From assembly GCA_963768675.1 (NCBI GenBank), contig CAVYIV010000016.1, forward strand, positions 152,150 through 216,149: a stretch of DNA of 64,000 nt, written 5' to 3'. This DNA is from an uncultured Chloroflexia bacterium. GTDB taxonomy: Bacteria; Chloroflexota; Limnocylindria; Limnocylindrales; CSP1-4. Under the pieces are notes generated by a model. It had not been told where the DNA came from and ran no database searches. It saw only the letters and a list, made by a program, of their open reading frames with translations. The position numbers and the translations under genes were made by a program. This document shows, in pieces, positions 7,168-47,465 of the stretch; positions within the stretch are counted from its first letter, which is position 1, and each line of letters opens with the position of its first letter.

Positions 7168-7231
7168 GGAACCCAGTTTCGCATAGGGCCGAGTCGGCCG
7201 CCTCTGGCCTTCGCGCGCGCGGACGACTCGG

Positions 7232-9198: not shown

Positions 9199-9202
9199 CG
9201 AC

Positions 9203-10163
9203 TCACAGCTCCCGCAGCTTGGGGTTGAAGATCTCGTCGAGGCCGACGTTCATGACGTACAGCGCCCCGACGATGGCCGTGATCGCAAGCCCGGGCGGGA
9301 TGAACCACCACCAGAGCCTGCAGCTGCAGAGCGCTCCAGAGCACGGCGTTGTTCATCATCAGTCCCGAGGGAGATCGCCGTCCGGTCGGGCCGAGGCCGA
9401 TGAAGTCGAGGGTCGCGGCGATCAGGATCGCCCCGCCGAAGAGCAGGATGAAGGTCATGAACAGGTAGGAGCCCATGTTCGGGGCGATCTCCTGGAAGAT
9501 GATCTTCCAGCTCGCTCAGCCCGCTCAGGCGCGCTAGGTCGACGAACTCCCGGGATCGCAGCGAGAAGGTCTGGGCGCGGACGCCCGCGCGGCCCACGGC
9601 CAGGAGGTCAGCCCGATGAAGGCGGCCTCCACGACCACCCCGCGCGCCTTGAGGTAGGCAGCGATGACGACGCAGGACAGCGAGGGTCGGGATGACCAGG
9701 ACGACGTTCGTGATCATGTTCAGGATCTCGTCCACGATCCCGCCCCGGTAGCCGGCGACGAACCCGATGCTGATGCCGACGAGGGCCGCGAGGCCTCCGC
9801 CGAGCAGACCCGACGAGGAACGTGGCCTGCAGGCCGTTGACGAACTGGGCGAAGACGTCCTGTCCGAACGTGGTCGTGCCGAACCAGTAGTCGGCGCTGG
9901 GGGGCTGCCCCGTGGGGCCCGACGAAGGCCTGCGGATCGTTCGGGTCGACGATCGGCCCGACGATCGCGAGGGCAAGAAGAACAGGACGATCCCCGCGCC
10001 GATGAGGATCCGCTTGTCGCGCAGCGCGAAGTAGAGGATCTCGCGCCGTTGGCGCACTGGGGCCGCCCCGGGGAACGCCGTGGTCCCCGACATTGGCACG
10101 GGCTCCCGAACTTCCAGGGGCCCGCCGGCCGGGCCGGCCGGGAGAACGTCGCTGTGCGCTCAT
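9203..10163 (-). pseudogene. ABC transporter permease (OppC/DppC-like), multiply frameshifted
   Basis: Fragments [118 protein letters not shown] and [18 protein letters not shown]-stop lie in alternating frames. ATG 10163 overlaps the upstream stop (ATGA). Confidence 0.7.
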
Positions 10164-11156
10164 GCCGCGCCCCCCTGCATCCCGATCCGGGTGCGGGGGT
10201 CGACCAGGACATACGCGATGTCGATCAGGAAGTTCGCCACGAGCACGCCGATGATCACGAACAGGAACACGCCCTGGAGGAGGAAGTAGTCCTCGTTCTG
10301 GATCGCACTGGAGGATGAGGTATCCGAGGCCCGGGTAGGAGAACACGACCTCGGTAACCAGGGCACCGGCGACGATCACGCCCAGTTGCAGCGCCAGCCC
10401 GGTGATCTGGGGCAGGACTGCGTTGCGGAACGCGTACCGGCGGACCAGGCCGCTGGGGCGCCCCCAGCGCCTCGAGGTAGTGCGCGTAGTCCGACTCGAG
10501 CTCGTAGATGATCATGTTCCGCATGCCGATCGCCCAGCCGCCGAACATGACCAGGAAGAGCGAGAGGAACGGCATGAGCCAGTGCGTGTACGCGTTGAGG
10601 AAGAACTGCCATGTGAGCGTCGGAGACATCGAAAGATCGAAAGGCGCCCGACAACGGGAAGATCCTCAGGACTGACCCGAGCCCCCAGGCGAGCAGGATC
10701 CCGAGCCACATGTACGGCGTCGCAGTCAGGATGTAGCCGACCGGCAGGACGGTGTTGTCGAGTCGCTTTCGCCGTGCGGCATACGCGCCGAACTGGTTTC
10801 CGGCAACCCAGCTGAATAGGATCGCCGGAACGAGCAGCACGAGCGTGTACGGCAAGCGCCGACATGATGACGTCGGTGACGGGCCGCGGGAACAGCCACA
10901 CGCTGATGCCCAGGTCGCCGTGGAAAAGCGCGACCCAGAAGTTGAGGTACTGCTGCCAGAGCGGGTGATTCAGCCCGAACGCGCCGAGGAAGTAGCCCAT
11001 CATCCTGTCAGCCGCGTCGGGCTGCAGGTTCATCCGCGCGAGCATCCCCGACACAGGGTTGCCGGGCATGAAGCGCGGGATCATCCAGTCGACCGTCACC
11101 GCGACGACGAACGTCAGGATGTAGGTGACGAGCTTTCGGGCGAAGTACCGGCGCAC
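10160..11156 (-). pseudogene. ABC transporter permease (OppB/DppB-like), multiply frameshifted
   Basis: MRRYFARKLVTYILTFVVAVTVDWMIPRFMPGNP..., [84 protein letters not shown] and [39 protein letters not shown] are each in a different ORF-track frame. Confidence 0.7.
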
Positions 11157-11184
11157 GATGCCTCCCGAGAGGTCTGGGAAATAG

Positions 11185-11230
11185 GAGCCCCGTCCCTCGC
11201 CCCGGAATCCGAGGCGAGGGACGGGGGCTC
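11185..11230 (-). promoter_or_regulatory. intercistronic stem-loop between binding-protein and permease genes
   Basis: GAGCCCCGTCCCTCGCC (11185-11201) pairs with GGCGAGGGACGGGG(G)CTC (11213-11230), giving a 17-bp stem with one bulged G and an 11-nt loop. It lies in the 85-nt gap between the SBP stop and the oppB-like start. Confidence 0.5.
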
Positions 11231-11241
11231 GCGAGAGACGC

Positions 11242-12973
11242 TTACTTCAACTTCAGCGTCGTGAGCATGAGCACCGAGCCCATGTTCCAGTACCCGCCCC
11301 ACGTGACGGGCATGTAGTGCGGGCTGCCCGCCGCGGCGGACGGCCAGTTGGTCCAGACGTTGTTAACCTCCTGCGCCCACGCCCCGTTGTACCACAGCGG
11401 GATGATCGGCAGGTTCTGCAGCTGGATCGTCTGGATCTGGGAGATGATCTTCTTCATCCCGACAACGTTGCTTGTCTGCGTCGCGTCGAGCTGCTCGACC
11501 AGGGTCCAGATCGTTGAGTTCTTGTACCGCCCATCGTTGCCCGCGACCTGCGTGGCCTGGATCGGCTGGCGGAACATCCACTGGTAGTACGCCCAGGGGG
11601 TGTTGGCGATCTGGGCGTCGTTCGCGATCGCCAGGTCGAAGTTGCCCGTCTGGACCTTGTTCGTCCTGTCGTTGTAGGAGGGGAAGCTCGGAGTGATCCT
11701 GATCCCGCCCGCCTTGGCGCTCTGGGCGATCGACTGGATGGCTGCCATCCAGTCCGTCCAGCCGTTCGGCACGATCAGAGCTCAGGTTGATCACCGAGCC
11801 GTCCTTGTTGCGGAAGTAGCCGTCGCTGCCCATCTTGTAGCCCGCGGCCGTGAGGATCTTCCTGGCGTCGGTCGGGTTGTACGTGTAGCCGTACTTGGCG
11901 ACGACGGACTTGTCGACGAACTGGTTCCAGGTGGGCAGGAGGCCGGTCGGGTTGGCGGCCTGAACGATCTGTCCGTAGACGTTGTTCACGATCTGGCTGA
12001 CGTTGATCGATTCGGCCAGCGCCCGCCGGAAGACCGGATCGTTCGTCGGCTTCTTGACGTTGTTCGTGACCAGCCAGGCGGTGTTGGCCGACAGCATGTA
12101 GGGCGGCTTCGGGTAGTAGGTCTGAATGCCGTATCCGCCGATACCGCTGACGATGCTGTTAATGCCGGGCAGGAAGTTGTTACTCAGGTCGATGGTTCCC
12201 GCCAGCACCTGGCCGAGCTCGACGTTGTTGCTGCCGTTGACCTCGTCGACGATGTAGGTCGGCTTGACGTCCAAACCTAGGAGCGACGTGCCCCACCATG
12301 CGTCGTTCTTGACCCAGACGACCTTCGTCTGGTCGTAGGTCAGCAACTCGTACGGGCCGCTGCCGACGACACCGGCCGCAGCGTTAGGGCTGGTGTTGTA
12401 GGTAAGGACGTCCGTAACCGTTCGCGTCCCCCACACATGCGCCGGCACGATCGCCACGGTGTACAGCGAGTTCGACCACTCCTGGTAGAGGGCCTTGGAG
12501 AACGTGAACTGCACCGTTAGGTCGTCGACCGCCGTCACGCTCTGGAGGAAGTTCCACAGCGTGCTGTAGGGGACCGAGGCAAGCTTGCCGAGGTCAAAGG
12601 TGTAGACGACGTCAGCGGACGTGAGCGGCGTCCCGTCGCTCCAGGTGAGCCCCGAACGGAGCTTCAGCGTGTAGGTCTTGGCCCCCGTCCAGCTTCCACT
12701 CTGCGCCAGCCAAGGAATGAACTTGTCGGAGAGCGGGTTGTACAGGAAGAGCGACTCGTAGAGCAGCCCGAACGTTCCGGTCACGTAGCCGCCGGCGACC
12801 GGGTTGAAGTCGGTGGGCGGCCCGTACATCGTGCCGCTCGTGTAGAGCGTCTGGTCGCGCGGATAGGACGTCGGGACCGGCCCAGGGCCTGCCGCGCTGG
12901 CGGCTGCCGGGAAGAGTGCTCCGACCAGACTCGCGCTCGCTAGCAGGACGAAAAGCCTTCGCTTGAGACCCAA
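11242..12973 (-). pseudogene. ABC transporter substrate-binding protein, family 5 (OppA/DppA-type), one frameshift near 11775
   Basis: Signal peptide MGLKRRLFVLLASASLVGALFPAAASA, then a long family-5 SBP body in ORF 11363..12973 up to ...DGSVINLS. The C-terminal third (PNGWTDWMAAIQSIAQSAKAGGIRITP...PLWYNGAWAQ...TTLKLK-stop) continues in ORF 11242..11772. TTG start 12973 follows AAGGAGGA. Confidence 0.8.
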
Positions 12974-13045
12974 TCCAGTTCCTCCTTCTTGCCCCCTCCG
13001 GGAATGGAGAGGCGATACCTGCGTTGCAGGGAAGTCAGCGCGCAG

Positions 13046-34294: not shown

Positions 34295-35785
34295 TCAGAG
34301 GCCGGCCCGGGCTTCGGCGCGGGCCACAATCTCGCGGAGCTCGGCTGCGGCGTCATCCGGGAGCGGCAGCGGGACCCGGTTGGCGGCAAGGATCGCGTCC
34401 GCTCGGTCGGCGGCGCGGGCGGCCAGCGCCCGGCCACCCGCGTTGGCCCATGCGCCCCGCGAGCGCCGATCGAACAGCGTCGGGTACCAGCGCGAGCGGT
34501 AGTGAGCCAGGGTATGGTCGGATTCGAGGAAGGAGCCCTCGACCCCGAGCTCGTCGACGAGGTCGAGCGCGAAGGCGTCGTCAGAGAGGTCGACCGGCGC
34601 GGTGGCGGCGCGGGTCCAGCCAACGATCTCGTCGCAGATCGCGAGCTGCGCCAGCGACCCGGCGAGCCCCGACTCGAGGTAGCCGCTGTCGTGCGTGACC
34701 TGACCCGCAGCGAGCGCGTCGAGCAGGATGGCCGCGGCGGCCTCGGCGGCGGCCTGGCCGTCGACGATCTTCGAATCCGCGCCCCCGCCGAGGCTGAACA
34801 TCGGGAACCCCAGGTGGTGGGCCAGCGCCTCCGCAGCACCCTTCGGGTCGGGGCCCACGTAGGGGTCGACCGTCGTGCGCAGATCAAGGGCATCGCCGCC
34901 AAAGCCGGGCACGACAACCGGCGCGCCCTCGCGCACGAGCTGCGCGATCACGATCCCAGCGAGCACGCCCGCGTGGTTGACTGCGAGCGTCCCGGCGAGC
35001 GTGACCGGCCCGGTCGTGCCGCCCGAGGTGACCGGGATCCAGAGCGCCGGGAGCCCGCGCTCGGCGAGGAAGAGGAGCCGGCCGACCGCGTCCTCGTCGA
35101 GGAGGAGCCCGCGCGTCACGTTGATGTACCAGCCGATCGTCGGGCGCGCCGCCTGCTCTCCGGCGCCGCCGGAGACGGCCGCGGCCATCGCGAGGACGTC
35201 CTTGAGCCCGTCGAGCTCGTACGTCACGACGATCAGCGGCTTCGTCGTCCCGGTCAGCATCGCGACGGCCTGGTGGCGATCGGCGACCCGCCCATCGACA
35301 TCCGAGGGCAGGAACATGGACATGGCGAAGGCCATGTTCGGGAGCGCATCGACCAGGGCAATGCCGGCGCGGACGTCGGCAAGCGTGGCGAGGCGCCGCT
35401 CGCCCGTCCGCCCGTCGACGATGTTGGGGCAGTCCGAGCCAGGCCCGAACCAGGCCGTCTCGCCTCCCCAGGCGATCGCCGGCCGGCCCGACCGGTCGTG
35501 CAGGGTGAGCGACTTCGGCGTGACGGCGAGCCCCTCGGCCACGAGCCGCGCCGGGATGCGCACGCGATCGGCCTCGTCGACGCGCGCGCCGGCGGCCGCC
35601 AGCAGGCGCCGCGCCTCCGGGTGGTCGACCCGGACGCCCGTTCGCTCGAGGATCGCGCAGGCCGCTGCCTGGATGCTCGCGCAGCCTTCCTCGCTCAGTC
35701 GCGTCCAGCGGCCGGCGCCGGGCGTGATTGCCGCCGGACCGGACCACTCGTCGGTGCGCACGCGAGCAGTATCCTTTATCGGCAT
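34295..35785 (-). CDS. MttB-family corrinoid methyltransferase, non-Pyl, paralog 3 (first gene of the operon)
   Basis: From MPIKDTARVRTDEWSG (ATG 35785): LSEEGCASIQAAACAILERTGVRV...GFGGDALDLRTTVDPYVGPDP...GSLAQLAICDEIVG, collinear with paralogs 1 and 2. The 81 codons upstream in ORF 34295..36028 run antisense into the integrase gene and are not coding. Confidence 0.85.
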   Translation of the reverse strand: MPIKDTARVRTDEWSGPAAITPGAGRWTRLSEEGCASIQAAACAILERTGVRVDHPEARRLLAAAGARVDEADRVRIPARLVAEGLAVTPKSLTLHDRSGRPAIAWGGETAWFGPGSDCPNIVDGRTGERRLATLADVRAGIALVDALPNMAFAMSMFLPSDVDGRVADRHQAVAMLTGTTKPLIVVTYELDGLKDVLAMAAAVSGGAGEQAARPTIGWYINVTRGLLLDEDAVGRLLFLAERGLPALWIPVTSGGTTGPVTLAGTLAVNHAGVLAGIVIAQLVREGAPVVVPGFGGDALDLRTTVDPYVGPDPKGAAEALAHHLGFPMFSLGGGADSKIVDGQAAAEAAAAILLDALAAGQVTHDSGYLESGLAGSLAQLAICDEIVGWTRAATAPVDLSDDAFALDLVDELGVEGSFLESDHTLAHYRSRWYPTLFDRRSRGAWANAGGRALAARAADRADAILAANRVPLPLPDDAAAELREIVARAEARAGL

Positions 35786-35837
35786 AGTACACTCACCGAA
35801 ACGAGGCTCACGAGGCCGAAGGATTGGAGCACCAGCC

Positions 35838-37208
35838 ATGATGCCACGCGCCGAGAACCACGGGCGGGCCGTCGAGTACCTACGCCGCAGCGTGGAGCGC
35901 GACAAGAGTGCCGATAAGGACCGCGGCGCCGGCCAGCGTGCCGCCAACGCCGCCCAGGCCGCCCGCGATGGCGTGATCATTGCGCGGTCCTTCGATGGTG
36001 ATTGGGGCATCTCCGGCGGCCGTGGCAAGCGCGAGTACCGGCACGCGATGGCCGAGCTAATCGACGCGATCCGCGCCGGCGAAGTCTCCCGCGTCTACTG
36101 CCACACGACCGACCGACTGGCCCGCGACGTCGAGTACGGCATGGCCCTCTGGAACGCCTGCAAGGACGCCGGCACGATCCTCCGCCCTGGCTCGCAGACG
36201 TTCGACCCCCAAGAGCCCGGATACCTAACCCTCTGGACCGTGCTACTCGCTCAGGCCGAAGAAGACCTCGACCGGATGACTAGGAAGAACCACGACCAGA
36301 TCGACTACGGGCGCGACCACGCCCTGACCTGTCCGCTCCCCGGCCGCCCGCACCTTGGCCGATGCCATCTCGTCGGATGCACCGACAAGACCCATTGCAG
36401 CCTAAGCCATGAGCGCGGCCGGAAGCCCTACGGCACCATGCCGGAGGAGGACGCCGCCGCCGTCGTGACCGCCTTCCTCGAAGCCGGCAGCCTGAACGGC
36501 GCTGCCCGCATCTTGAACGACCGCGGCGTACCAACCAAGACGCCCGGCGGACGCTGGTCGGCCCGGACAATCAAGGCCGTCGTGGAGCGGACCACCCCCG
36601 GAACGGTCCCCTACGGTGGCCGGAGAGGAGCGCGCACCGTCGCCCGGCGAGCCCTTGCCGGGCTCCTGCATTGTGGCGGGACCGTCGCGGGAGGCGCGAC
36701 GTGCGGCCACGTCCTGACCTCTAAGCCGCGCCCAGCTGCCACGCGACGCGACGGGACGCCGCGCCAAGCCATAACGCAGTGGATTTGCCCCGACGTCGTA
36801 AACACCACCACGCACAGCAGGCCCCAGGGGATCAGCGAGGCCCGGCTACTCCCGGCGATCATGGCCGAGAGCCTGCATTACCGGGCCCCGGCCGACGAGT
36901 TCACCGCGGCCGAGCGTACGAGCCAGCGCGACAAGCTCACAGCCGACCTTGCCCGCGTGCAACGACTCGCGATCTCTGGCGTACTGGACGAAGACCAGGC
37001 CGCGGCCGAGGCCAAGTCGATCCGGGCCCAGCTCGCCGCCCTCGACCACGCGGCAGCGCCAGTCGCGATACCCCAGGCGATCTCCTGGAGCGCCCCGGCC
37101 GCAGAGCTCAATGGATGGCTGCGTGCTCTGTGGCCCGAGGGTATCGAGCTCGACAGCAACCTCCTACCCGTCCGGTACTCATGGCTCCCGGGATGGCGCC
37201 GTGACTAG
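35838..37208 (+). CDS. large serine recombinase (integrase)
   Basis: N-terminal resolvase-type catalytic domain (AVEYLRRSVERD with candidate nucleophile Ser; TDRLARDVEYGMALW), a recombinase domain (GRKPYG...GSLNGAARILNDRGVPTKTPGGRWSARTIKAVV), a Cys-rich zinc-ribbon region (LLHCGG...TCGHVL...WICP) and a C-terminal coiled coil (RDKLTADLARVQRL...AAEAKSIRAQLAAL). Start ATG 35838 follows GGAG. Confidence 0.85.
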   Translation: MMPRAENHGRAVEYLRRSVERDKSADKDRGAGQRAANAAQAARDGVIIARSFDGDWGISGGRGKREYRHAMAELIDAIRAGEVSRVYCHTTDRLARDVEYGMALWNACKDAGTILRPGSQTFDPQEPGYLTLWTVLLAQAEEDLDRMTRKNHDQIDYGRDHALTCPLPGRPHLGRCHLVGCTDKTHCSLSHERGRKPYGTMPEEDAAAVVTAFLEAGSLNGAARILNDRGVPTKTPGGRWSARTIKAVVERTTPGTVPYGGRRGARTVARRALAGLLHCGGTVAGGATCGHVLTSKPRPAATRRDGTPRQAITQWICPDVVNTTTHSRPQGISEARLLPAIMAESLHYRAPADEFTAAERTSQRDKLTADLARVQRLAISGVLDEDQAAAEAKSIRAQLAALDHAAAPVAIPQAISWSAPAAELNGWLRALWPEGIELDSNLLPVRYSWLPGWRRD

Positions 37209-37361
37209 ACAGCGCCCGCGCCTCTGGATCAAACGGCCCGGCCCACCAGCCGGGCCGTTCCACGTCCCGGGATCGCACGCCCAGGGTAGGCAGAGACGAC
37301 GCCACGCGTAGCCGGAGCATACGCTACACGTATACCACCCCTAGGGTCACAGGCGCCGCAT

Positions 37362-37379
37362 ACCACAAGATGTTGTGGT
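37362..37379. promoter_or_regulatory. inverted repeat ACCACAA-GATG-TTGTGGT (operator-like) abutting the -35 box
   Basis: Perfect 7-bp arms, 8 nt upstream of the TTGACA at 37387. A second palindrome GCGTCAC-AG-GTGACGC lies at 37464-37479, and a GTCACAGG half-copy at 37346-37353. Confidence 0.35.
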
Positions 37380-37386
37380 TCCCGCA

Positions 37387-37415
37387 TTGACAGAGGCTTG
37401 CTCCCGCGGTACATT
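37387..37415 (+). promoter_or_regulatory. sigma-70/SigA-type promoter (TTGACA-17 nt-TACATT) for the rightward ORF chain
   Basis: Exact -35 consensus TTGACA (37387-37392), a 17-nt spacer and -10 TACATT (37410-37415). It lies in the 560-nt gap after the integrase gene in otherwise very G+C-rich DNA. Confidence 0.5.
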
Positions 37416-37557
37416 GGGCCCGCAGTAGGGAAGCCGGCAGCCGCGAAAGCCCGGTAGCTCCCAGCGTCACAGGTGACGCGCTCCGGGGCCGCGAGGCCGG
37501 AGCCACTTTCGCAGCCACGGCGCGACCCGCGCCGCCAGCTCGAAAGCAGGCGCACTC

Positions 37558-37761
37558 GTGACCTCCGCACCCGCAGAACCCACCTTCGGCGCCCACATGG
37601 GGCCCAGCGCGGCCGGCAGGATCGGCAGCGCAAAACGGTGGGGCCCTCCCCGCAGGATCAACCTCCGAGACATGGACGAGGCCGGCCGCCGGATCGTGCT
37701 AGCCAGCGTCGCCGCCGTCCGCGCAGAGCACGCGCGAGACACCGCCGCGGCCCAGAAGTAG
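37558..37761 (+). CDS. hypothetical small protein (weak call)
   Basis: 67-aa ORF downstream of the promoter and the only +strand ORF before the coupled chain. No clear SD; internal starts at 37600 and 37669 are possible. Confidence 0.25.
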   Translation: MTSAPAEPTFGAHMGPSAAGRIGSAKRWGPPRRINLRDMDEAGRRIVLASVAAVRAEHARDTAAAQK

Positions 37762-37770
37762 GCCGGCGCC

Positions 37771-38454
37771 GTGACCCGCGGAGAAGGCTTGCAGCGAGCC
37801 GATATCGACTCGTCTCTACTCACCGACCCGAAGCTACGCCGACTCCGGCGCCAGCTCCCGGACGCCGCCCAGATGGCCCGCGCCGTGGTCCTGTACCTCG
37901 CAGCCCTCCTCGACTCGTGGAGGACCGGAGAGCGAGTCTCCGCGGAGGACGCGGCCCCCGAATGGATCGAGGCCGACGCCGGCACGCTCGCCGCGCTCGT
38001 GGCCGCCGATCTCCTCGACAACGAGTACCGCGTCCCGCTCCACGCCTGGACCGCGTGGCACGACCCCGCCGTGCAGCGCATCTCCCAGAACCGCGAGAAG
38101 GCCCAGCTAGGAGGACTCCGCGCCCGCGGGGCCCGGACCCGCGACGAGGCCGAGGCTATGCGCGCAGCCCTCAACAGCCCAGCTATCAGCCCAGCTATCA
38201 GCGCCACTGATACACCAGCCAGCCAGCCAGCCACACCTACAGGGCCCAGCCAGCCGCTAGGAGTAGAGAACACTCCGCCGGCCGGAGCGAAGACACGAAC
38301 CGCGAAGCCCTCAGATGACGACGAACGACGCCGAGAGGCCGCGGCAGCCCACGCCTACGAGCTCGACGCGAAGTACCGGCCCAGCATCCCGACCGACCCG
38401 CGCCCCCTTCGGGACATCGTGGCCCAGCTCGCCCAGACAGGAGCGCCAGCATGA
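37771..38454 (+). CDS. hypothetical element protein (helical N-domain, low-complexity linker, acidic C-terminus)
   Basis: First ORF of a chain linked by ATGA/GTGA overlaps. The N-terminal part (DSSLLTDPKLRRLRRQLPDAAQMARAVVLYLAALLDSWRTGERV) faintly resembles phage replisome-organiser/DUF1376-type N-domains, but this is not established. It contains in-frame tandem repeats (PAIS x2). Confidence 0.55.
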   Translation: MTRGEGLQRADIDSSLLTDPKLRRLRRQLPDAAQMARAVVLYLAALLDSWRTGERVSAEDAAPEWIEADAGTLAALVAADLLDNEYRVPLHAWTAWHDPAVQRISQNREKAQLGGLRARGARTRDEAEAMRAALNSPAISPAISATDTPASQPATPTGPSQPLGVENTPPAGAKTRTAKPSDDDERRREAAAAHAYELDAKYRPSIPTDPRPLRDIVAQLAQTGAPA

Positions 38455-38666
38455 CCGACCCCGAAGACCTCGAACACCGACGCCGCCGGCACGAGCGGCT
38501 AGACGGTACGGGCAGCCCGACCCACAACGGCGCCGAGCTCCGCCGACGCGAACGCTTCGACGTGGCCCGCAGGATCGACCGGCGCGAGCTCAAACGCTGG
38601 ACGCTCGAACGCTTGCAGGCGATGGAGCGCCGCATTGACACCCTCGAACGGGAGGCCCGGCCGTGA
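38451..38666 (+). CDS. hypothetical small coiled-coil protein
   Basis: ATGA overlap with the upstream stop, with AGGAG 6 nt upstream. Arg/Glu-rich helical sequence. Confidence 0.5.
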   Translation: MTDPEDLEHRRRRHERLDGTGSPTHNGAELRRRERFDVARRIDRRELKRWTLERLQAMERRIDTLEREARP

Positions 38667-39256
38667 GCATGGCGGCCGGAGGCGCCCGGCCCGCGACCAT
38701 GCCCGAGCTCATGACCGCGCACACGCCGGAGCCGCCTAGCGCCGCCGATGCGCTCAGGAGAGCCAGCCGCCGGCACCGCGCCGCTATCGAGCGCCTAGAG
38801 CGTGCCCGGGATGCGACCACGGCCGCGCTCGCAGCGAACGAGGAGCCGACGCCGGGCAGCTCACGCCAAGCGAACAGCGCCCGTATCGCCCTCGACGCCG
38901 CGCTAGCCGAAGTCTCCGAAGCCAGCGCCGCGCTCGTGGAAGCATGGCGCCGCCGCGCCCAGGCCGGCCCAGAACAAGCCGGGCCCGAACAGCTCGCAGA
39001 GGCCCGCGAGCTCCAGGCCCAGGGTGCCCAGCTCGCCGGCCGGACCCGCGCCTACCTCCGAGCCATCCTCGAAGACGGGCGAGAGCTCGACGCCGAAGCG
39101 CGCGAATGGCGCGCGGCAGCGTCCGACTTCCAAGCCGCCAACGCGCTACGCATAGACCGGAGCGCGGTCGAACCCCTCGCAGACCTCGCAGCGTGGACGA
39201 CGCTAGCCGCCGCCGTCCGGTCCGCGCTGGACTACCTCCCGGAGCCGAGACGGTGA
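38663..39256 (+). CDS. hypothetical Ala/Glu-rich helical protein
   Basis: GTGA overlap with the upstream stop, with GGGAGG 7 nt upstream. Contains the in-frame repeat GPEQAGPEQ. Confidence 0.5.
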   Translation: MSMAAGGARPATMPELMTAHTPEPPSAADALRRASRRHRAAIERLERARDATTAALAANEEPTPGSSRQANSARIALDAALAEVSEASAALVEAWRRRAQAGPEQAGPEQLAEARELQAQGAQLAGRTRAYLRAILEDGRELDAEAREWRAAASDFQAANALRIDRSAVEPLADLAAWTTLAAAVRSALDYLPEPRR

Positions 39257-39588
39257 CCCACACAGCCGCTCACAGACTGCTAGAGCTCGCCCGGAAGCGA
39301 GCCTTGACCCACACGTCACCAACGCCGGCACCAACGCCGGCACCAACGCCACCAACGCCGCCGGCCCGTGAATACCTCGAACCGCGCGACCTCCCAAACG
39401 ACGACCTCTTGTGGCACTCATGGCGGGCCCAGGAGGCGACGAGACGACTACAGGAGGCCGCCGGGCAGACGCCGGACGCCGTGTATTCGCCGCCGGCCCG
39501 CCTATCGGCCGAGGAGCGCCGCGCCGCCCTCGAACGTCTCCGGGCAGCCAACCGCTACCCAGGCGACCACGAGGAGGCCGACGAATGA
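39253..39588 (+). CDS. hypothetical protein with TPAP repeat
   Basis: GTGA overlap with the upstream stop. 12-nt tandem repeat CACCAACGCCGG (39317-39362) encodes (TPAP)n. In frame within ORF 38944..39588. Confidence 0.5.
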   Translation: MTHTAAHRLLELARKRALTHTSPTPAPTPAPTPPTPPAREYLEPRDLPNDDLLWHSWRAQEATRRLQEAAGQTPDAVYSPPARLSAEERRAALERLRAANRYPGDHEEADE

Positions 39589-39950
39589 GAGCCGCCCACG
39601 TCGAGCCGCCCAGCCTCAGATGCGGACAGCTCCACGACCCACGCCTAGCCGCCGGCCGACTCTCGCAGACGTGCCCCCGGTGCGGGCGGTCGGAGGCCGC
39701 GCACTGGTATTGCTCCTGGTGCGTCCGGCCGATGACGCCGGCCAACTGGTACGAAGACAAGCGCGGCAGCGACGAGGCCGCCCGCCGTATGCCGAAGACC
39801 GCACCGGCCGACCCGCCGACCGAGCTACGCGAGCACTGGCCGCCGTCGTGGGGCCCGAAACCCCGCCAGAAGGCCGCCAGCGCCCCCCAGGAGGCCGCAG
39901 ACACCCCGGAACCCCTAAACGTGGCCCAGAACACCACCGCAGCAGCGTAG
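39585..39950 (+). CDS. hypothetical zinc-ribbon protein
   Basis: ATGA overlap with the upstream stop. CPRC-x9-CSWC four-Cys motif (TCPRCGRSEAAHWYCSWC). Confidence 0.5.
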   Translation: MRAAHVEPPSLRCGQLHDPRLAAGRLSQTCPRCGRSEAAHWYCSWCVRPMTPANWYEDKRGSDEAARRMPKTAPADPPTELREHWPPSWGPKPRQKAASAPQEAADTPEPLNVAQNTTAAA

Positions 39951-39964
39951 AGAGGATCGCCAGC

Positions 39965-40666
39965 ATGACAACGCTCTATGTCTTCAGGACCGCCGAGGCG
40001 CCGTCGCTCACCGTCGGCCCAGGACTCCGAGGCGACGACGCGACCACAGTGCAGTTTGTCCCGGGCCCGGACGGGGCAGGGTACGCCGAGATCAGCTCAG
40101 ACGACCCGAACCTAGCGCGCAAGCTCGCATGGATCACGAGCGCCCGGAACCTGTACCGGATCGAGGCAGTAGAGGCCGACTCCCGGCCGACGCCCGACGC
40201 CACCCTCTGCGACATGGAATGGTGCCCGGTCGGGATGGATCAACGGGCCGGCAGGGTCCCGCACGTGGCAGCGCCACATGATGCGCCACGCCCCGGGAGG
40301 CGACCTCCCCAAGCCCCGCGCGAACGTGACCACGAGCGGCCCGGAGTTTGCCCGATGAGCCCGCAGCCCTTCGACCGCCACCAACTAGGCCGCTACCTCG
40401 AAGCGAAGCTAGCCGGCCGTGAGCCCGAGCCGATCCCGGGCCCGGCCCCGACGCAGACGCTCGCAGACGTGGCGCGCAACGCCATCCGAGCCAGCGACCA
40501 GGAGGAGGGAACCCCCAACGACACCACATCCCGCCGCGCGTTCCTGTCTCTAGGAGTCTCCGGCCGGGAGGCTCTGGCCGACGAGAACAACCCCAACCAC
40601 GAGGCCGCAGCCGAGCTCTACGCGAAGTTGGCCGAGCTCGAACGCAGGAAGGACCGGAGCGCATGA
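39965..40666 (+). CDS. hypothetical protein
   Basis: ATG 39965 lies 14 nt after the previous stop, preceded by GAGAGGA (MTTLYVFRTAEAPSLTV...). 233 aa, the largest product of the chain, with no recognisable motif. Confidence 0.5.
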   Translation: MTTLYVFRTAEAPSLTVGPGLRGDDATTVQFVPGPDGAGYAEISSDDPNLARKLAWITSARNLYRIEAVEADSRPTPDATLCDMEWCPVGMDQRAGRVPHVAAPHDAPRPGRRPPQAPRERDHERPGVCPMSPQPFDRHQLGRYLEAKLAGREPEPIPGPAPTQTLADVARNAIRASDQEEGTPNDTTSRRAFLSLGVSGREALADENNPNHEAAAELYAKLAELERRKDRSA

Positions 40667-40950
40667 CCGACCACCGACCACCCAGCGAGGACGCTAAAGA
40701 GCTCCAGCGCATCCGGGAGGGTATCGCCAAGGCGAGGGAGGACGCCGCGGCCGGCCGACACCCCGCCCATTGGCAGCCGAAGTACAGCGAGCTCCGGCGC
40801 CACCTGTCCGCGGTCGGGGCCGCGGCCCCGATCCCGGACGACCCAACCACGAAGCCCAAGGACAAGCGACCCGGGCGATACCACCTCGACGCCTACAACG
40901 TCCCCTATTGGCAGGAAGACCCAGAACCGCAGGAAGGCGAGACACGATGA
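40663..40950 (+). CDS. hypothetical small protein
   Basis: ATGA overlap with the upstream stop, with GGAG 5 nt upstream. Confidence 0.5.
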   Translation: MTDHRPPSEDAKELQRIREGIAKAREDAAAGRHPAHWQPKYSELRRHLSAVGAAAPIPDDPTTKPKDKRPGRYHLDAYNVPYWQEDPEPQEGETR

Positions 40951-41297
40951 GCACCCCGAAGACCTCGAACAAGACCGACACGGGACACCCGGCCGCGGGG
41001 CACCCGTCCGACTTCGGCCCGGCCGACGCCAACACGACGGGCCCGGGATCATTCCCGACGCACCCGACGACCCTACCGGGCAGCGGAGGCCCGGCACATG
41101 AGCCGTTGAAGGTCAACAGCGGACCCGTCCCGGGAGGCTGGGGCACCTCGACCGGAAAGCGCGCGACCGGGAACCTCCCCGGACTCGACCACCCCTCGGA
41201 CGCAGGCGACCGCGTGACCCCGGCCGGACCAGCCGCCCAGCCGAACCCCAAGCTAGCCGGAGCCGGCGCCACGAAGAAGGCGCCGCCCAACAAGTAG
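40947..41297 (+). CDS. hypothetical Pro/Gly-rich protein
   Basis: ATGA overlap with the upstream stop. Low-complexity, probably disordered product. Confidence 0.45.
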   Translation: MSTPKTSNKTDTGHPAAGHPSDFGPADANTTGPGSFPTHPTTLPGSGGPAHEPLKVNSGPVPGGWGTSTGKRATGNLPGLDHPSDAGDRVTPAGPAAQPNPKLAGAGATKKAPPNK

Positions 41298-41413
41298 ACG
41301 CGGCAGGGCCGACCCGATCCCGGCCCACCGCGTCAAACGGGCCGGCCGGTGGACTTCCCCCAATCGGTCGGCCCGACACCTACGGCCGGCGCGATGTAGG
41401 CACGCCAGCCACA

Positions 41414-41443
41414 GGGGCCCGGACTGGTAGCGGTCCGGGCCCC
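41414..41443 (+). terminator. GC-rich hairpin between ORF blocks (attenuator/terminator-like, no U tract)
   Basis: GGGGCCCGGAC (41414-41424) pairs with GTCCGGGCCCC (41433-41443), giving an 11-bp perfect stem and an 8-nt loop. It is followed by AGGAG and ATG 41467. Confidence 0.35.
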
Positions 41444-41466
41444 GCACCTCGACAGGAGCCGACCAG

Positions 41467-41835
41467 ATGACCGACACGAACGGACCCGACCCGGGATACA
41501 CGAAGCCCGGCCGCCGCGGAATGGTGCACGATGCCGACCTCGACGTATGGATGGACCCAGCGACCGCGGACTACATGGAGAACGCCGCCGGCCGCGGCAT
41601 CCCGGGCCCGGCCCTGCCACGCTCGAAGCGCGGCCGCAGCGCGCCCAAGCCGAAGGCCACCGGCAGCGCCGCCAGGATCGCCGACCTCGCCCATCAGATC
41701 GCCGCGGAGGCCCAGGCGATGACCTCGAACGCGCCGACGGAGGCGCCGCCAGCGGTGGAGCGAGCCGAGGAGCAGACGCCTGTCCCAGCCGCGACCCCGC
41801 ACGAGCTCGCCGTAGCGGAGCAGGGGCAGCCGTGA
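41467..41835 (+). CDS. hypothetical protein
   Basis: AGGAG lies 8 nt upstream of the ATG. 122 aa with a basic middle (KRGRSAPKPK). Confidence 0.5.
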   Translation: MTDTNGPDPGYTKPGRRGMVHDADLDVWMDPATADYMENAAGRGIPGPALPRSKRGRSAPKPKATGSAARIADLAHQIAAEAQAMTSNAPTEAPPAVERAEEQTPVPAATPHELAVAEQGQP

Positions 41836-41974
41836 ACGAGCCGCAGAGCCGACCCTAGTGGTGCACCCACGCCTACGCAAGAGCCAGCGGGCCCTAGGCT
41901 CCGACCCCGGCCGGTAGGACACTGGATCCCCCAAGGAGGATACGCGCGACCCCGGACCACCCTTAGGCCCAGAA

Positions 41975-42193
41975 ATGGAGCAGTCCTTGCCCTACGCCGA
42001 CCCCGAGAAGAAACGCGCTTACGACCGCGCCCACCGCGAGCAGCACGCCGCAGTCCAGCGCACCTACTACGCCGCCCACCGCAAGGCCATCCTCCGACAG
42101 AAGGCGGCCTATGACTCCGCCCATTGTTCGGATCGGATGATCGCTCGCCTCAGGCTAGACGGCCAGCGAGCCCTAGAGCCCTTCACCGCGTGA
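41975..42193 (+). CDS. hypothetical small protein with YADPEKKRAY motif
   Basis: 72-aa ORF. Its N-terminus, PYADPEKKRAYDRAHREQHAAVQRTYYAAHRKA, is paralogous to the next ORF. Confidence 0.45.
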   Translation: MEQSLPYADPEKKRAYDRAHREQHAAVQRTYYAAHRKAILRQKAAYDSAHCSDRMIARLRLDGQRALEPFTA

Positions 42194-42534
42194 GTTACGC
42201 CGATCCCGAGCGACGCCGCGCTTACTGGCGCGCCTACCACGCAGCGCGCCCCAAGGAGCACGCCGCGGCCCAGCGCCGATACGCCGCCACGCCGAAAGGA
42301 CGAGAGGCCGCGGCCCGGTCCCACTGGAAGGAGTACAAGCAGAACCTACGCCAGCGCATCGCCGACGGCCCCGCCAAGATCGCCGCCCTAGAGGCCGAAC
42401 TAGACGAGCTCCTCGCAGTACCGCAGCGTGCCGATGCGTCGCCCAGCGTACCGGCCAGTACAAGGCCCGAGACAGACGATGGGGCAGACGCGCTCATCGT
42501 CGCAGTCTGGCGTCACGTCACCGCGAGGCCCTGA
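42190..42534 (+). CDS. hypothetical protein with YADPERRRAY motif (tandem paralog)
   Basis: GTGA overlap with the upstream stop (VSYADPERRRAYWRAYHAARPKEHAAAQRRYAATPKGREA...), followed by a coiled-coil segment. Confidence 0.45.
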   Translation: MSYADPERRRAYWRAYHAARPKEHAAAQRRYAATPKGREAAARSHWKEYKQNLRQRIADGPAKIAALEAELDELLAVPQRADASPSVPASTRPETDDGADALIVAVWRHVTARP

Positions 42535-42856
42535 AACAGCCCCGGGGGTAGGAAGGACACTCGCGCCGCGGCCAACTTCCGCGCCGTACAACCCGGCGGG
42601 GCCCGGTGGGTGTCGCACTTGGCGCGACGGCAGAGCTCGCCGGCCGAGCCGACCGGCACGCGACCGACCGCGCCAGATGATGCGGAGCCGTGCACTCCTG
42701 GGCGGTGCGGTGCGTTCTATTTGTGCTCAGTGGGACGAGTGTACCCATACCGAGCGATTAAGACTCGACTCCCACGAGCACGCGGCGCCGATCACGCGCA
42801 ACCGTCCGCGAGCGTGCACCGGGCGAGTCATGGGGCCGCACGCATTCCTCACAGAA

Positions 42857-43017
42857 CCTATCAAGCCGGTCCGATGCTGCCCGGCGCCTATCAGCTCGAC
42901 CAGCAAGAGCTAGCCCGCCGCTCTGATAGCACGAGGCGCCTGCCGGCGCCAAGAGGACCCTGCCGCGGTATCGCTGCTGATAGCCGGACCGTGGACACTG
43001 GGGCCGCCTTCTGATAC
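42857..43017. repeat. cluster of CTATCA(G) motifs in a 650-nt non-coding, lower-G+C region
   Basis: Forward copies are CCTATCA at 42857-42863 and 42887-42893. Inverted copies are TGATAG at 42924-42929 and 42978-42983, and TGATAC at 43012-43017. CTATCAG also occurs twice in tandem inside the gene at 38183-38201. Confidence 0.35.
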
Positions 43018-43187
43018 GTACAGCGTCTAGTCAACGTGGACTCTGCGGCACCGCTCACCCTACGTCAGGCGTAGGCCCACGATGTGCACCCAGGCGCCCG
43101 CACCGTGCAGCGCATGCCGCGGCAGGGACCCTCCTCGGCCGAGCAGAGGACCTTGGCGGGCAAGCATCCGCGCGTAGACTGCGGGGC

Positions 43188-43733
43188 ATGAGTTGGGTTG
43201 ACCGGCTCCTTCGTGCGGTTGGCATCGCACAAGGAGCATATTTCCTCTGGTTCACGATAGGTACATCGGTAGTTGTGGCCGGTGCAATGGCGGGCATCCT
43301 GGCAGCAATCAGCGGACTGCCTACCTGGTCCATCGGGGTGATTGCAGTGGGGCTGTTCTTTGTTGGACTCGGCGTGGTCAACGCACTTGCCGTCGCGATC
43401 TCAGGTCGGCTCGTACCGAGGTCGGAGCCCTATCACGCACTGACGCGAGTGATTGAGGATGGCCGCCGACTTCGTGAGCGCTTGAGCGCGCTGGACACAG
43501 ACCCCACCGAGCAGGAACAGGCCGAGTGGACGGTCCGTCTCAAGGACTGGAACGACGCTGCGGACGCAACGGTCGCGCGGGTCGCACCTTTCCGGCTTGC
43601 CGCGTTCAGGGTGGACCTCATCATCGCCGATTACCCCGGGCGCAGGCAGGGTCGCCCCAAACAGATCGCCCAATGGGAACTCGACGTGGAAACGACCCTA
43701 GAGCGTTTGCTCTATATCCGAGTAACGCTCTAG
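43188..43733 (+). CDS. hypothetical membrane protein (3 TM helices plus a cytoplasmic helical domain)
   Basis: 181-aa ORF with hydrophobic segments (AYFLWFTIGTSVVVAGAMAGILAAI, WSIGVIAVGLFFVGLGVVNALAVAI). Codon usage is visibly richer in A/T-ending codons than in the flanking genes. Confidence 0.6.
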   Translation: MSWVDRLLRAVGIAQGAYFLWFTIGTSVVVAGAMAGILAAISGLPTWSIGVIAVGLFFVGLGVVNALAVAISGRLVPRSEPYHALTRVIEDGRRLRERLSALDTDPTEQEQAEWTVRLKDWNDAADATVARVAPFRLAAFRVDLIIADYPGRRQGRPKQIAQWELDVETTLERLLYIRVTL

Positions 43734-43807
43734 TCAGCAGCCTGGCGAGCTCCGCGCCCGTCCAGATGTAATCGCCGCGGCTCCGACGCTAGACTCACCG
43801 CGCCCCG

Positions 43808-44272
43808 TCACTGCGGGACGTTCTGCTGGACCCAGTAGTTGATCGCGTCGCACTTGTCGCTGAACGCCTGGTTGGCGTCATAGATCGCCTTGTAGGCTGC
43901 GTCGAACTGGTCCATCGTCATCGGTCGAGCGAAGGCTGACGCGCCGGCGACGAGAGCCGAATGCAGCGCTGCGACCTCGGCGTCCGCGCCGGTCCCTGAG
44001 AAGCCCGCGACCAGCGCGGCGTCCTTCTTGGCCGCCGCCGCTGCCACCTTGCGCGCGATTGTCACGTCGCCCAGGGTCGAGAAGTAGAGCTGCTCGGCGG
44101 CGGGCGCGTCGGTCCCGAAGTTGTAGATGCTGGCGAGCGCGCAGGCGTCAGCCTGCGCCTTCGTGTAAGTCGGCGTGGGGGCCGCAGGCGTCGCCGCCGC
44201 CCCGCCGCCGGAGCACCCGGCAAGGGCCAACACCGCTGCCATGACCCCGCCGGTAAAGCCGCGTGTAAGCAT
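43808..44272 (-). CDS. hypothetical lipoprotein
   Basis: MLTRGFTGGVMAAVLALAGCSGG is a lipobox (LAGC) signal peptide, followed by an Ala-rich helical mature domain ending CDAINYWVQQNVPQ. ORF 43808..44320 offers an upstream TTG start, but ATG 44272 fits the signal peptide. Confidence 0.6.
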   Translation of the reverse strand: MLTRGFTGGVMAAVLALAGCSGGGAAATPAAPTPTYTKAQADACALASIYNFGTDAPAAEQLYFSTLGDVTIARKVAAAAAKKDAALVAGFSGTGADAEVAALHSALVAGASAFARPMTMDQFDAAYKAIYDANQAFSDKCDAINYWVQQNVPQ

Positions 44273-45135
44273 CGCCGCCGCCTTCTTGACTCCCCCCGCC
44301 ACTCTGAACCTCGCGCCCAACGACCGCTGACTCGCCCGATGGCGTCGCTCGGGATGCCGATCTCGGCTAGGAACTCGGGCTCCTGCACAACCGGGACCCC
44401 GTACTCCTTCGCCCGTTGGAGGTTGCCGGTGACCTCCTCCGGGTCCGCGACGATGAGCGCGTGCGTCTTCTTGGTGAGGCGAGGGAGCACGTCACATTGG
44501 GCCCACCGGGCGAGCATCACCTGGGCGTGCCGGTCAAGTGGGACCCCGTAAACGGTGGTTCCCATCTCGCCCGTGAACGCGATCATCTTCCCGACCCACG
44601 GGTGGGCAGCGATTGGGGCCCGGTCGTCCGTGACCATCTCCGCGGCGCATTCGCCGGGCGTGCCGAGATGCAGGACCACGCCGACCCCTTCGCGCTCTGG
44701 GACTCGGGCCGCGTCGCAAGCTACCGCCGTTGTCATATCCGACTTGGAAGCCGCAAGGTGCCGGAATAGGGGCTGGTACGCGATTGCGTCATAGCGCGAC
44801 AGGTAGCCCGCCTGCGTCCATGCGCCGCCCGCCCACAGGTGCACGCCTATCGCGTTCGGGTCGTACTGGTTCGTCGGTTCCGGGATCAGCATCGCCTTGA
44901 AGAACCCGACGGGCGGCGGCGGGAGTCCCGGAGGTAGGTCATCGGGGCCCGGGGGACGCGCGGCTCGTAAGTTCTCCTGCCTATAGAACTCGCCGACGAC
45001 CTGCACGGCTGCGTCGTCGCGCATCCCTGTGAAGGCCGTGAAGTGCAGCCTGATCTCGTGGATGCCGGTATCGCGGCCACGCTGCCCGCTTGGCGACGCC
45101 GTCGGGGTGCCTCGCAGTCGTCGCAGGAAGCCCAT
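44062..45135 (-). CDS. HIRAN domain - BRCT domain protein (3' end uncertain)
   Basis: ATG 45135 follows GGAGGG. HIRAN signature VVGEFYRQENL...IPEPTNQYDPNAIGVHL...AGYLSRYDAIAYQPLF. BRCT-like C-terminal domain GKMIAFTGEMG...LTKKTHALIVADPEEVTGNLQRAKEYGVPVVQEPEFL. The last ~90 codons are Arg-rich, overlap the lipoprotein gene and are probably not real. Confidence 0.65.
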   Translation of the reverse strand: MGFLRRLRGTPTASPSGQRGRDTGIHEIRLHFTAFTGMRDDAAVQVVGEFYRQENLRAARPPGPDDLPPGLPPPPVGFFKAMLIPEPTNQYDPNAIGVHLWAGGAWTQAGYLSRYDAIAYQPLFRHLAASKSDMTTAVACDAARVPEREGVGVVLHLGTPGECAAEMVTDDRAPIAAHPWVGKMIAFTGEMGTTVYGVPLDRHAQVMLARWAQCDVLPRLTKKTHALIVADPEEVTGNLQRAKEYGVPVVQEPEFLAEIGIPSDAIGRVSGRWARGSEWRGESRRRRRCLHAALPAGSWQRCWPLPGAPAAGRRRRLRPPRRLTRRRRLTPARSPASTTSGPTRPPPSSSTSRPWAT

Positions 45136-45405
45136 CGCCACACCCTCCGAGCCATAAGCGCGAGTGCAGGCTAGGCTCCTATTCTGCGCCTGCCGGCGCC
45201 GTCCCATGCCTCCCAGGAGCCAGCAGGAAGCCCCAGCACGAGCGAGCGCGCGGGCCGATGGTATCCGCGTGCTGAATGGCCCTGTCTTCGGGACTACTTG
45301 GTCCTACACGTCGGGCATCGGACCTCCCTCGGCGCGAGGGTGCCGGGCCTCCCAACATGTCCGCCAGTGCGAAATGGCCCGTTGCTGCGGGCGGCGCAAC
45401 GAATA

Positions 45406-45438
45406 GCGAGGCCCCGGCCGTCCCGGCCGGGGCCTCGC
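45406..45438 (-). terminator. groEL terminator hairpin
   Basis: GCGAGGCCCCGGCC (45406-45419) pairs with GGCCGGGGCCTCGC (45425-45438), giving a 14-bp perfect stem and a 5-nt loop 22 nt after the groEL stop. On the minus strand it is followed by UAUUCGUU. Confidence 0.6.
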
Positions 45439-45460: not shown

Positions 45461-47094
<1,634 letters not shown>

Positions 47095-47153
47095 GGATTC
47101 GGGTTCCTCCTGGGTTGACGCGCGAAGCGGCGGGGCGAGACGGGCAGGGCCCG

Positions 47154-47465
47154 TCAGCCCTCGACGATCGCGAGAATGTCCTTCTGGCTCACGATGAGCA
47201 GGTCCTCGCCGTTGACCTTGAACTCGGTACCGGCGTACTTCGCGTAGAGGACCTTGTCGCCCACGGCGACGTCCATTTTCTCGCGCGACCCGTCATCGAG
47301 GATCCGGCCCGGCCCGACGGCGAGCGCGGAGCCCTCCTGGGGCTTCTCCTTGGCGGTGTCCGGCAGGACGATCCCGCTCTTGGTGATCTCCTCGCGCGGC
47401 GACGGCTTGATGACGACGCGATCCCCGAGCGGTCGGAGTTTCGTCGTCTCGGTTGCGGTGGCCAA
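47154..47465 (-). CDS. groES: co-chaperonin GroES
   Basis: KLRPLGDRVVIKPSPREEITKSGIVLPDTAKEKPQEG...GDKVLYAKYAGTEFKVNGEDLLI is canonical GroES. TTG start 47465 lies 7 nt after AGGAGGG. Confidence 0.95.
   Translation of the reverse strand: MATATETTKLRPLGDRVVIKPSPREEITKSGIVLPDTAKEKPQEGSALAVGPGRILDDGSREKMDVAVGDKVLYAKYAGTEFKVNGEDLLIVSQKDILAIVEG

Follow-up and report, generated by a model that had tools for sequence, protein, structure and literature searches.

A 9.5-kb serine-integrase element lacking detectable virion genes at the 5′ end of mttB in a Limnocylindria-like member of the Chloroflexota

Layout, boundaries and target of the element

The DNA examined here (the window) is a 64,000 nt stretch of contig CAVYIV010000016.1 (assembly GCA_963768675.1, positions 152,150 to 216,149), with a GC content of about 72%. 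Between an mttB-like gene and the groEL terminator (located at 45406-45438) it carries an insertion of 9,539 bp that opens with a gene for a large serine recombinase (LSR), termed Int. The GC3 (third codon position) frame plot and the lists of open reading frames (ORFs) show the Int ORF to be followed by a 350 nt gap, thirteen forward-strand ORFs (37558-42534), a gene-poor stretch of 653 nt, and three genes of lower GC. Coding on the plus strand is backed by the frame plot from 37558 to 42534, and the GC content of the element (0.70) is below that of its flanks (0.73-0.76). A preliminary description of this stretch, made from the letters alone, had proposed a discrete serine-integrase element of about 9.5 kb beginning at 35786. 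The size stands, while the start has been corrected: alignment to empty sites shows that the inserted block consists of 35774..45310 plus one TC core. Its run of short plus-strand ORFs is likewise borne out over 37558-42534, but the last three genes (g14 on the plus strand, g15 and g16 on the minus strand) form a separate accessory module with a GC content of 0.63-0.67.

Related loci were fetched with the mttB-like flank from a one-genome-per-species collection. The block is missing at the mttB locus in all 11 of the closest relatives, and two of these (L016 and L043) provide the empty sites that the preliminary description had proposed looking for, with the equivalent of window position ~35773 joined straight to that of ~45309-45311. 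No homologues of the 17 element proteins were found in 62 related host loci. The sites attL, attR and attB have only the dinucleotide TC in common (35772-35773 and 45311-45312), and the bases on either side differ. A 2 bp crossover core without long direct repeats is a hallmark of LSRs and, taken together with an LSR as the first gene, this indicates insertion by conservative site-specific serine recombination. The reconstructed attP is CTTGGTCCTACACG-TC-CTTTATCGGCATAGTACAC and the reconstructed attB is GCGAGCAGTA-TC-GGGCATCGGACCTCC, the attB used for comparison being that of other species (L043, L016) and not of an isogenic strain. It is firmly established that the block is a true mobile-element insertion, made by serine-recombinase chemistry in the 5′ end of mttB and absent from the relatives. 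A right boundary near 42745, guessed from a 17 nt inverted repeat, was ruled out by the empty sites, which place attR at 45311.

The Int gene, which adjoins one att site, had been described as an intact large serine recombinase at 35838..37208, and the searches agree. The protein matches Pfam Resolvase (PF00239) at 6.5e-10, above the cut-off, and the integrase family phrog_95 at 8.9e-19, with a match to Pfam Recombinase (0.0026) that is below the cut-off (18.4 vs 21.1 bits). A family profile was built from 21 members, in all of which the motifs YLRRS (containing the nucleophile, S18) and DRLAR are invariant; both are present in Int. Within this family, Cys279 and Cys317 of the zinc ribbon are invariant, and Cys289 and His326 nearly so. 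The profile aligns with the integrase of PhiC31 over positions 216-363 (1.3e-8) and with YokA/SprA of SPbeta over positions 215-414 (8e-8), in both cases across the recombinase, zinc-ribbon and coiled-coil regions, while its N-terminus aligns with gamma-delta resolvase. Searches with the single Int sequence gave no match in PDB, 50,697 GenBank phage records or 72,556 PLSDB plasmids. Relatives are rare: a word-indexed search of 5.8 billion proteins returned 27, and profile scans of metagenomes and IMG/VR returned only short contigs or one distant match. Int is an intact but very divergent LSR. Such a divergent enzyme may have a new target specificity, and could serve as a genome-engineering integrase.

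The crossover point lies in codon 3 of mttB. At the left end the element supplies a substitute start for the gene, which now reads MPIK-DTARVRTDEW as an in-frame fusion, compared with MP-DTAFVRTDEW in L043. At attR, the native Shine-Dalgarno sequence and ATG of mttB head, on the minus strand, a stub of four codons (ATG CCC GAC GTG TAG, 45318-45304) that faces g16 and g15. All of the relatives share a motif some 50 nt ahead of mttB (consensus among the Limnocylindria-like relatives, TCCGCCAGTGCGrAATGGCCC). In the window it is found in host DNA at 45356-45390, and a second copy is carried by the element itself (Table 1). These are the only two perfect matches to the pattern in the 64-kb window (0.23 expected). 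The element copy could be either captured host DNA or regulatory mimicry; the motif itself is a candidate promoter, operator or leader. Start-codon replacement combined with a duplicated regulatory motif illustrates how integration can occur at the 5′ end of a gene without destroying it.

The relatives recovered by way of the mttB-like flank are metagenome-assembled genomes (MAGs) of Chloroflexota/'Candidatus Limnocylindrales', with 86-94% protein identity, and at the nucleotide level the flanks of the element share 84-95% identity with Limnocylindrales/Chloroflexota MAGs. On these identities the host is a Limnocylindria-like member of the Chloroflexota and not an actinomycete; the preliminary description had set the element against the integrative conjugative elements of actinomycetes. 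In most of the relatives the 3′ end of groEL and the motif upstream of mttB are separated by an additional 0.8-1.6 kb or so (L043, 8522-9897; same position in L005-L010, L012 and L014), and this DNA is missing from both the window and L016.

The coupled operon and its proteins

The region between Int and g2 contains the promoter noted in the preliminary description, TTGACA-17-TACATT at 37387-37415. It agrees with the consensus at 10 of 12 positions and is the sole sigma-70-like match in 10 kb (0.4 expected). A palindrome, ACCACAAGATGTTGTGGT, lies at 37362-37379, and the repeat CCyAGnGTCACAGG occurs at 37340-37359 and again at 37460-37479. All seven of the start-stop overlaps listed previously are present (ATGA at 38451, 39585, 40663 and 40947; GTGA at 38663, 39253 and 42190), and most of the overlapping starts carry an upstream, GGAG-like Shine-Dalgarno sequence. 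The operon products are mostly highly charged or disordered. Apart from Int and g16, no ORF of the element exceeds 233 aa, the length of g8, which is the largest plus-strand product after Int. This fits the earlier figure of about 230 aa, except that g8 equals two genes in L002, a contig carrying a related element. None of the proteins g2 to g15 has a significant match in Pfam, PHROGs, NCBIfam or PADLOC (hereafter, the family libraries).

The first gene of the operon, g2, is 78-80% identical to its copies in the related contigs L002 and L004, where Int is 58-65% identical. It has no family match in Pfam, PHROGs or NCBIfam and no match in a scan of IMG/VR, and the sole confident element in a single-sequence model is one long helix (residues 41-65). 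Its strict co-occurrence with Int makes g2 a candidate integrase partner (directionality factor) or regulator.

For g3, a word-indexed search recovered two proteins, and it took an exhaustive HMMER search to bring out a large family: 542 cluster representatives at E ≤ 1e-3, of which 394 also pass E ≤ 1e-10. When 75 members were compared with Pfam there was no meaningful match (four isolated ones, E 0.005-0.009, one member each). The family profile had no sequence match in PDB, and tblastn with g3 found none in GenBank phages or 72,556 plasmids. A model made with AlphaFold2 from the family alignment has a mean pLDDT of 84.5, rising to > 95 for residues 11-100. Its best-named matches in BFVD are Lin1244/Lin1753-like N-terminal, DUF1376 and phage replisome organiser N-terminal domains, with further matches to the DnaA N-terminal domain and to 'replication initiation and membrane attachment' proteins. 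The top two have Foldseek probabilities of 0.98-0.99 and weak E-values (7.5e-3 to about 2), and a fold search of the model against PDB gave no meaningful match.

Homologues of g3 are found in the early regions of IMG/VR phage contigs of 39-44 kb; in one of 44 kb, the homologue comes after genes for a YqaJ exonuclease and RecT. In contig L080 it is located beside another serine recombinase, and in L079 (ENA ERZ1761214, 1-8648) it comes after a tyrosine integrase and an HTH_17 excisionase-like gene. The latter contig, 8.6 kb in length, is probably circular since it has an exact 29 nt terminal repeat. It also encodes a terminase large-subunit ATPase (phrog_7579, 1e-34), an endonuclease VII and an HNH gene, has no recognisable capsid or tail genes, and represents a candidate mini-satellite with a g3 homologue. 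Because of the fold matches in BFVD and the early-phage contexts, g3 is probably a replisome-organiser-like initiator, in the sense of resemblance and not of membership, and the element, contrary to the preliminary description, probably does have a replication gene. An extensive protein family that lacked annotation is now tentatively tied to the early or replication modules of phages.

The remaining operon genes are small (Table 1). Within g8 there is an internal Shine-Dalgarno sequence with an ATG at 40355, and an anomaly in the GC3 frame plot at 40200-40300; the protein matched itself only in a word-indexed search, and the gene may be a fusion or the product of an assembly indel. The tandem paralogues g12 and g13 share the repeat YADPExxRAYxRAxxxxHAAxQRxY, and their region has a weak PHROG match (E 0.12) to the N-terminal part of an 'endonuclease' family, without the nuclease domain. 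No match to g13 was found in the IMG/VR scan, nor to g7 or g13 by tblastn against GenBank phages. For the gene-free stretch that follows, the family libraries gave no sign of a leftover phage structural gene and Rfam gave no match, and its RNA fold z-score is only -2.9.

In the accessory module, g16 matches Pfam HIRAN (1.1e-3) and BRCT (1.5e-3), both under the curated cut-offs. It also matches PADLOC candidate defence profile PDC-S48 at 2.6e-10, over profile positions 330-403 of 411 only (the BRCT-like C-terminus) and not over the full length. The implausible 3′ read-through of g16 into g15 is probably due to an assembly indel.

Table 1. Positions in the window of the attachment sites, genes and other features of the element.
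Feature	Position	Strand	Description
attL	35750..35800	.	Host B arm GCGAGCAGTA, TC core 35772-35773, element P′ arm CTTTATCGGCATAGTACAC; from empty-site alignment
Substitute mttB 5′ end, element-borne	35774..35785	-	ATG CCG ATA AAG GA-; read from the sequence vs L043
Int, large serine recombinase, 456 aa	35838..37208	+	Catalytic, recombinase, zinc-ribbon and coiled-coil regions
Regulatory intergenic region	37209..37557	+	Promoter, palindrome, repeat
g2, 67 aa	37558..37761	+	Motif RWGpPRRINLRDL..RRIVLAS; conserved beside Int in all related elements
g3, 227 aa	37771..38454	+	Large unannotated family; putative replisome-organiser-like N-terminal domain
g4	38451-38666	+	Small charged protein, translationally coupled; no family match
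g5	38663-39256	+	Small charged protein, translationally coupled; no family match
g6	39253-39588	+	Small charged protein, translationally coupled; no family match
g7, 121 aa	39585..39950	+	CPxCG...WYCSWC zinc-ribbon motif; tblastn identity 52% (L002), 43% (L004)
g8, 233 aa	39965..40666	+	Equals two adjacent genes in L002 (87 + 124 aa)
g9	40663-40950	+	No family match
g10	40947-41297	+	Pro/Gly/Thr-rich, likely disordered
g11	41467-41835	+	No family match
g12	41975-42193	+	Paralogue of g13; direct repeats
g13	42190-42534	+	Paralogue of g12; L002 homologue 54% identical
Gene-free stretch, 653 nt	42535..43187	.	Lower GC; no convincing gene
g14, 181 aa	43188..43733	+	Membrane protein, N-terminal transmembrane helices; accessory; no family match
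g15, lipoprotein-like	43808..44320	-	Signal peptide ...LALAGC; GC3 0.87; accessory
g16, HIRAN + BRCT protein	ORF 44062..45135, gene about 44300-45135	-	Probable start 45135, GGAGGG Shine-Dalgarno sequence
Element copy of host motif	45262..45295	-	GTGCTGAATGGCCC; upstream of g16, ~20-50 nt inside attR
attR	45290..45340	.	Element P arm GGTCCTACACG, TC core 45311-45312, host B′ arm GGGCATCGGACC; from empty-site alignment
attB (L043)			GAAAGCAGTA-TC-GGGCATCGAACC; empty site in relative

The neighbouring groEL gene (45461-47100, minus strand), with groES upstream of it at 47154-47465, runs through three different frames. Compared with a 95%-identical copy in L016, it has two single-G insertions (~47044 and ~46194) that break the frame; either the assembly has indel errors here or groEL1 has become a pseudogene. 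Fragmentation over short ORFs is also seen in an ABC transporter operon of oligopeptide type at 6900-13000 (minus strand; SBP_bac_5, BPD_transp_1, ABC_tran), where the GC content is lower (0.65-0.68). The two fragmented loci reflect either an indel-prone assembly or pseudogenes. Within the element, the ORFs of Int, g2 and g3 match their homologues over the full length, and an independent Logan contig encodes identical Int, g2, g3 and g4 proteins.

Relatives and nature of the element

Searches of the ORFs, including the gap, detected no virion, terminase, conjugation or classical repressor genes with the family libraries, and no Walker A motif was found in any real reading frame, so that the preliminary description holds in this respect. 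The portal, major capsid, tail and lysis genes of a complete tailed prophage had no match in PHROGs or Pfam. The same was true, in Pfam, PHROGs and NCBIfam, of the satellite markers AlpA/Stl, terS, capsid-size redirection and Sid/Psu/Delta. No relaxase, type IV coupling protein, FtsK-like TraB or Rep domain, and no primase or helicase, was found with the family libraries, and a repeat search of the element gave no iterons. By hydropathy scan, transmembrane helices are present only in g14, and no membrane protein is encoded within the operon. Rfam and tRNA scans had no match, and a blastn search of GenBank phages with the element returned a single, trivial match of 50 nt. Since no virion, terminase, conjugation or ATPase genes were found, the element should be unable to transfer alone.

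The preliminary description had also proposed searching relatives for the same block. The Int-g2 pair does recur, accompanied by variable small ORFs, but at places other than the mttB locus. Contigs L002/L003, L004, L075 and L076 all show Int, a gap, a gene of 60-70 aa, and then small co-directional ORFs without Pfam match. The element of L004 has a different target, beside the start codon of an ABC permease gene. In more distant members, Int-g2 is followed by a 757 aa AAA_25 protein (L074) or by an HNH endonuclease (L077). Clear conservation throughout the relatives is limited to Int and g2, the other small ORFs being variable; g7, g8 and g13 are shared with L002, and g7 only with L004. L002 and L003, which were obtained from separate JGI samples, share 99.9% identity over 8.8 kb and diverge completely from position 8803, beyond which L002 has the g13 homologue and L003 has unrelated sequence with a promoter-like site (TTGACG-17-TACGCT). 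This suggests that the distal part is a swappable module. On L002, gene calling ends with the g13 homologue, about 9 kb from Int, and an ORF on the opposite strand follows about 100 nt later, suggesting that the L002 element is similarly small. Both ends have been mapped for the window element only.

Taken together, we lean towards reading the block as a 9.54-kb integrative element of phage early-region ancestry that is either helper-dependent (satellite-like) or currently cryptic. This reading is favoured by the intact state of both att sites, of Int and of the coupled operon, and by the absence of visible gene debris. Within it, phage early-region ancestry and a replication-initiation role for g3 are likely. 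The promoter at 37387-37415 would drive a single, translationally coupled operon from g2 to g13, in which g2 may act as the integrase partner (directionality factor) or as an autoregulator, and g3 would bring replication proteins of the host to the circle formed on excision. The other small products could be modulators of early-phage type. The genes g14-g16 would be accessory cargo (a membrane protein, a lipoprotein and a HIRAN-BRCT protein), of which g15 and g16, on the minus strand, would face the captured upstream region of mttB. Movement would rely on a helper phage, unless the element is cryptic at present.

Several points weigh against a helper-dependent or cryptic element of this kind. 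No helper phage is known for it, and no terS, cos/pac site, capsid-size gene, AlpA/Stl-type regulator or primase was detected. The reconstructed attP, which would mark a circular junction, was not found in the IMG/VR scan. The assignment of g3 depends on weak Foldseek E-values without support from sequence profiles. The relatives are on short contigs and could be parts of longer prophages, and single-base indels in the assembly make the ORF ends of g8 and g16 unreliable.

A cryptic prophage remnant is less likely, but is the main rival to be taken seriously. In that case a full-size temperate phage would have lost its late genes (structural and lysis) by internal deletion, and what persists between att sites that are still intact would be Int, the early operon and a few moron genes. 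The early-region location of g3 homologues in 39-44 kb phage contigs would suit such an origin, the deletion scar might be the low-GC stretch of 653 nt without genes that separates g13 from g14, and the contigs of the relatives are too short to exclude structural genes downstream. Decay sits poorly, however, with two exact att sites and an intact Int, with seven coupled junctions that have Shine-Dalgarno sequences, and with the finding of no structural-gene fragment in the gap or elsewhere. The L002 array, ending about 9 kb from Int with an opposite-strand ORF next to it, also points to a similarly small element. That the block is instead ordinary host DNA, conserved at this locus and not mobile, can practically be dismissed: its GC content is only modestly below that of the flanks (0.70 vs 0.73-0.76), but the empty sites refute the idea, the block being missing in 11 of 11 close relatives, without a protein homologue in 62 loci, and bounded by precise 2 bp junctions. 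The preliminary description had named conservation of the block at this locus across distant relatives, with host-like composition, as an observation that would speak against a mobile element, and in every relative examined the block was absent from the locus.

Many integrative mobilizable elements are small and have an integrase and no transfer genes. The window element shares these features and has two sizeable non-coding regions, so it might be excised by its LSR and hitch-hike on a conjugative element by means of an unrecognised origin of transfer (oriT). This is unlikely, given that no relaxase, coupling protein, FtsK-like ATPase or Walker A motif was found, and that g3, the only gene with recognisable relatives, occurs in phage contexts, with neither g3 nor Int matched by tblastn in 72,556 plasmids. 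Also quite improbable is a new type of minimal virus or plasmid-like replicon that would be self-sufficient, with structural or transfer proteins hidden among the unrecognisable small ORFs. Ten ORFs are without detectable relatives, the Int and g2 families were not found in IMG/VR, and a limited literature search found no paper on a phage or prophage of Chloroflexota or Limnocylindria, all of which would leave room for such a replicon. However, no small virus (dsDNA or ssDNA) or plasmid is known that lacks both a Rep protein and a packaging ATPase, whereas here there is no ATPase, no membrane protein in the operon and no product larger than 233 aa, and most products are highly charged or disordered.

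Going beyond the helper-dependent or cryptic reading, it can be proposed, speculatively, that the Int-g2-g3 elements form a family of helper-dependent satellites that has not been described before, and for which Chloroflexota has no earlier proposed example. Such elements would consist only of a divergent LSR, a dedicated small partner, a replisome-organiser-like initiator and about ten tiny effectors, would integrate into the first codons of host genes and supply them with new start codons, and would carry cargo (the HIRAN-BRCT protein and the lipoprotein) behind a captured host promoter region, together with a copy of the conserved motif of that region. If this were true, integration would rewire both the host operon and the cargo. 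Were helper dependence to be shown, the known range of phage satellites would take in one more phylum and another minimal set of genes. Little work seems to exist on the mobile elements and viruses of Limnocylindria-like soil Chloroflexota (a limited literature search found no paper on Limnocylindria prophages), and the element provides a cleanly bounded example with attL, attR and attB mapped.

Comparison with known systems

Thousands of LSR integrative elements have been predicted computationally, together with their attachment sites (Durrant et al. 2022, PMC10083194). The window element has the same Int domain set as LSR elements and prophages of the PhiC31, Bxb1, SPbeta/SprA and A118 type, and shares with them a 2 bp core, the lack of long repeats, a protein-coding target and the location of Int beside an att site. 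It differs in that its Int is very divergent, no virion genes were detected, and the start codon of the target is rebuilt. The putative initiator g3 resembles the replisome-organiser/DUF1376/Lin1244-N proteins in its model and in its early-region position, after YqaJ-RecT or Int-Xis, but neither g3 nor its 75 relatives have a sequence match to these families in Pfam.

Small satellites without capsid-remodelling genes are exemplified by PICMI (PMC10803314). Like these, the window element is very small, with few genes, none of them for capsid remodelling, and has overlaps of the ATGA type and possibly defence-related accessory genes. Unlike PICMI, it shows no detectable tyrosine integrase, AlpA or DUF3987/DUF5906 primase, nor the insertion adjacent to fis that is typical of PICMI in Vibrionaceae. 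EPIPs are 11-kb serine-integrase satellites of Mycolicibacterium (preprint, PMC12822802), and are similar in being high-GC elements of about 10 kb with a serine integrase and an incomplete set of virion genes. However, EPIPs encode terS, a head-tail adaptor/stopper, scaffold, major capsid and tape-measure proteins, none of which is detectable here, and they have been isolated as particles.

Three attributes of satellites, namely an integrase, a small size (9,539 bp) and precise att sites, are present in the window element. It falls outside the marker-gene definitions of PICI, P4, PLE, PICMI and EPIPs, and is best filed within the LSR-borne integrative elements.

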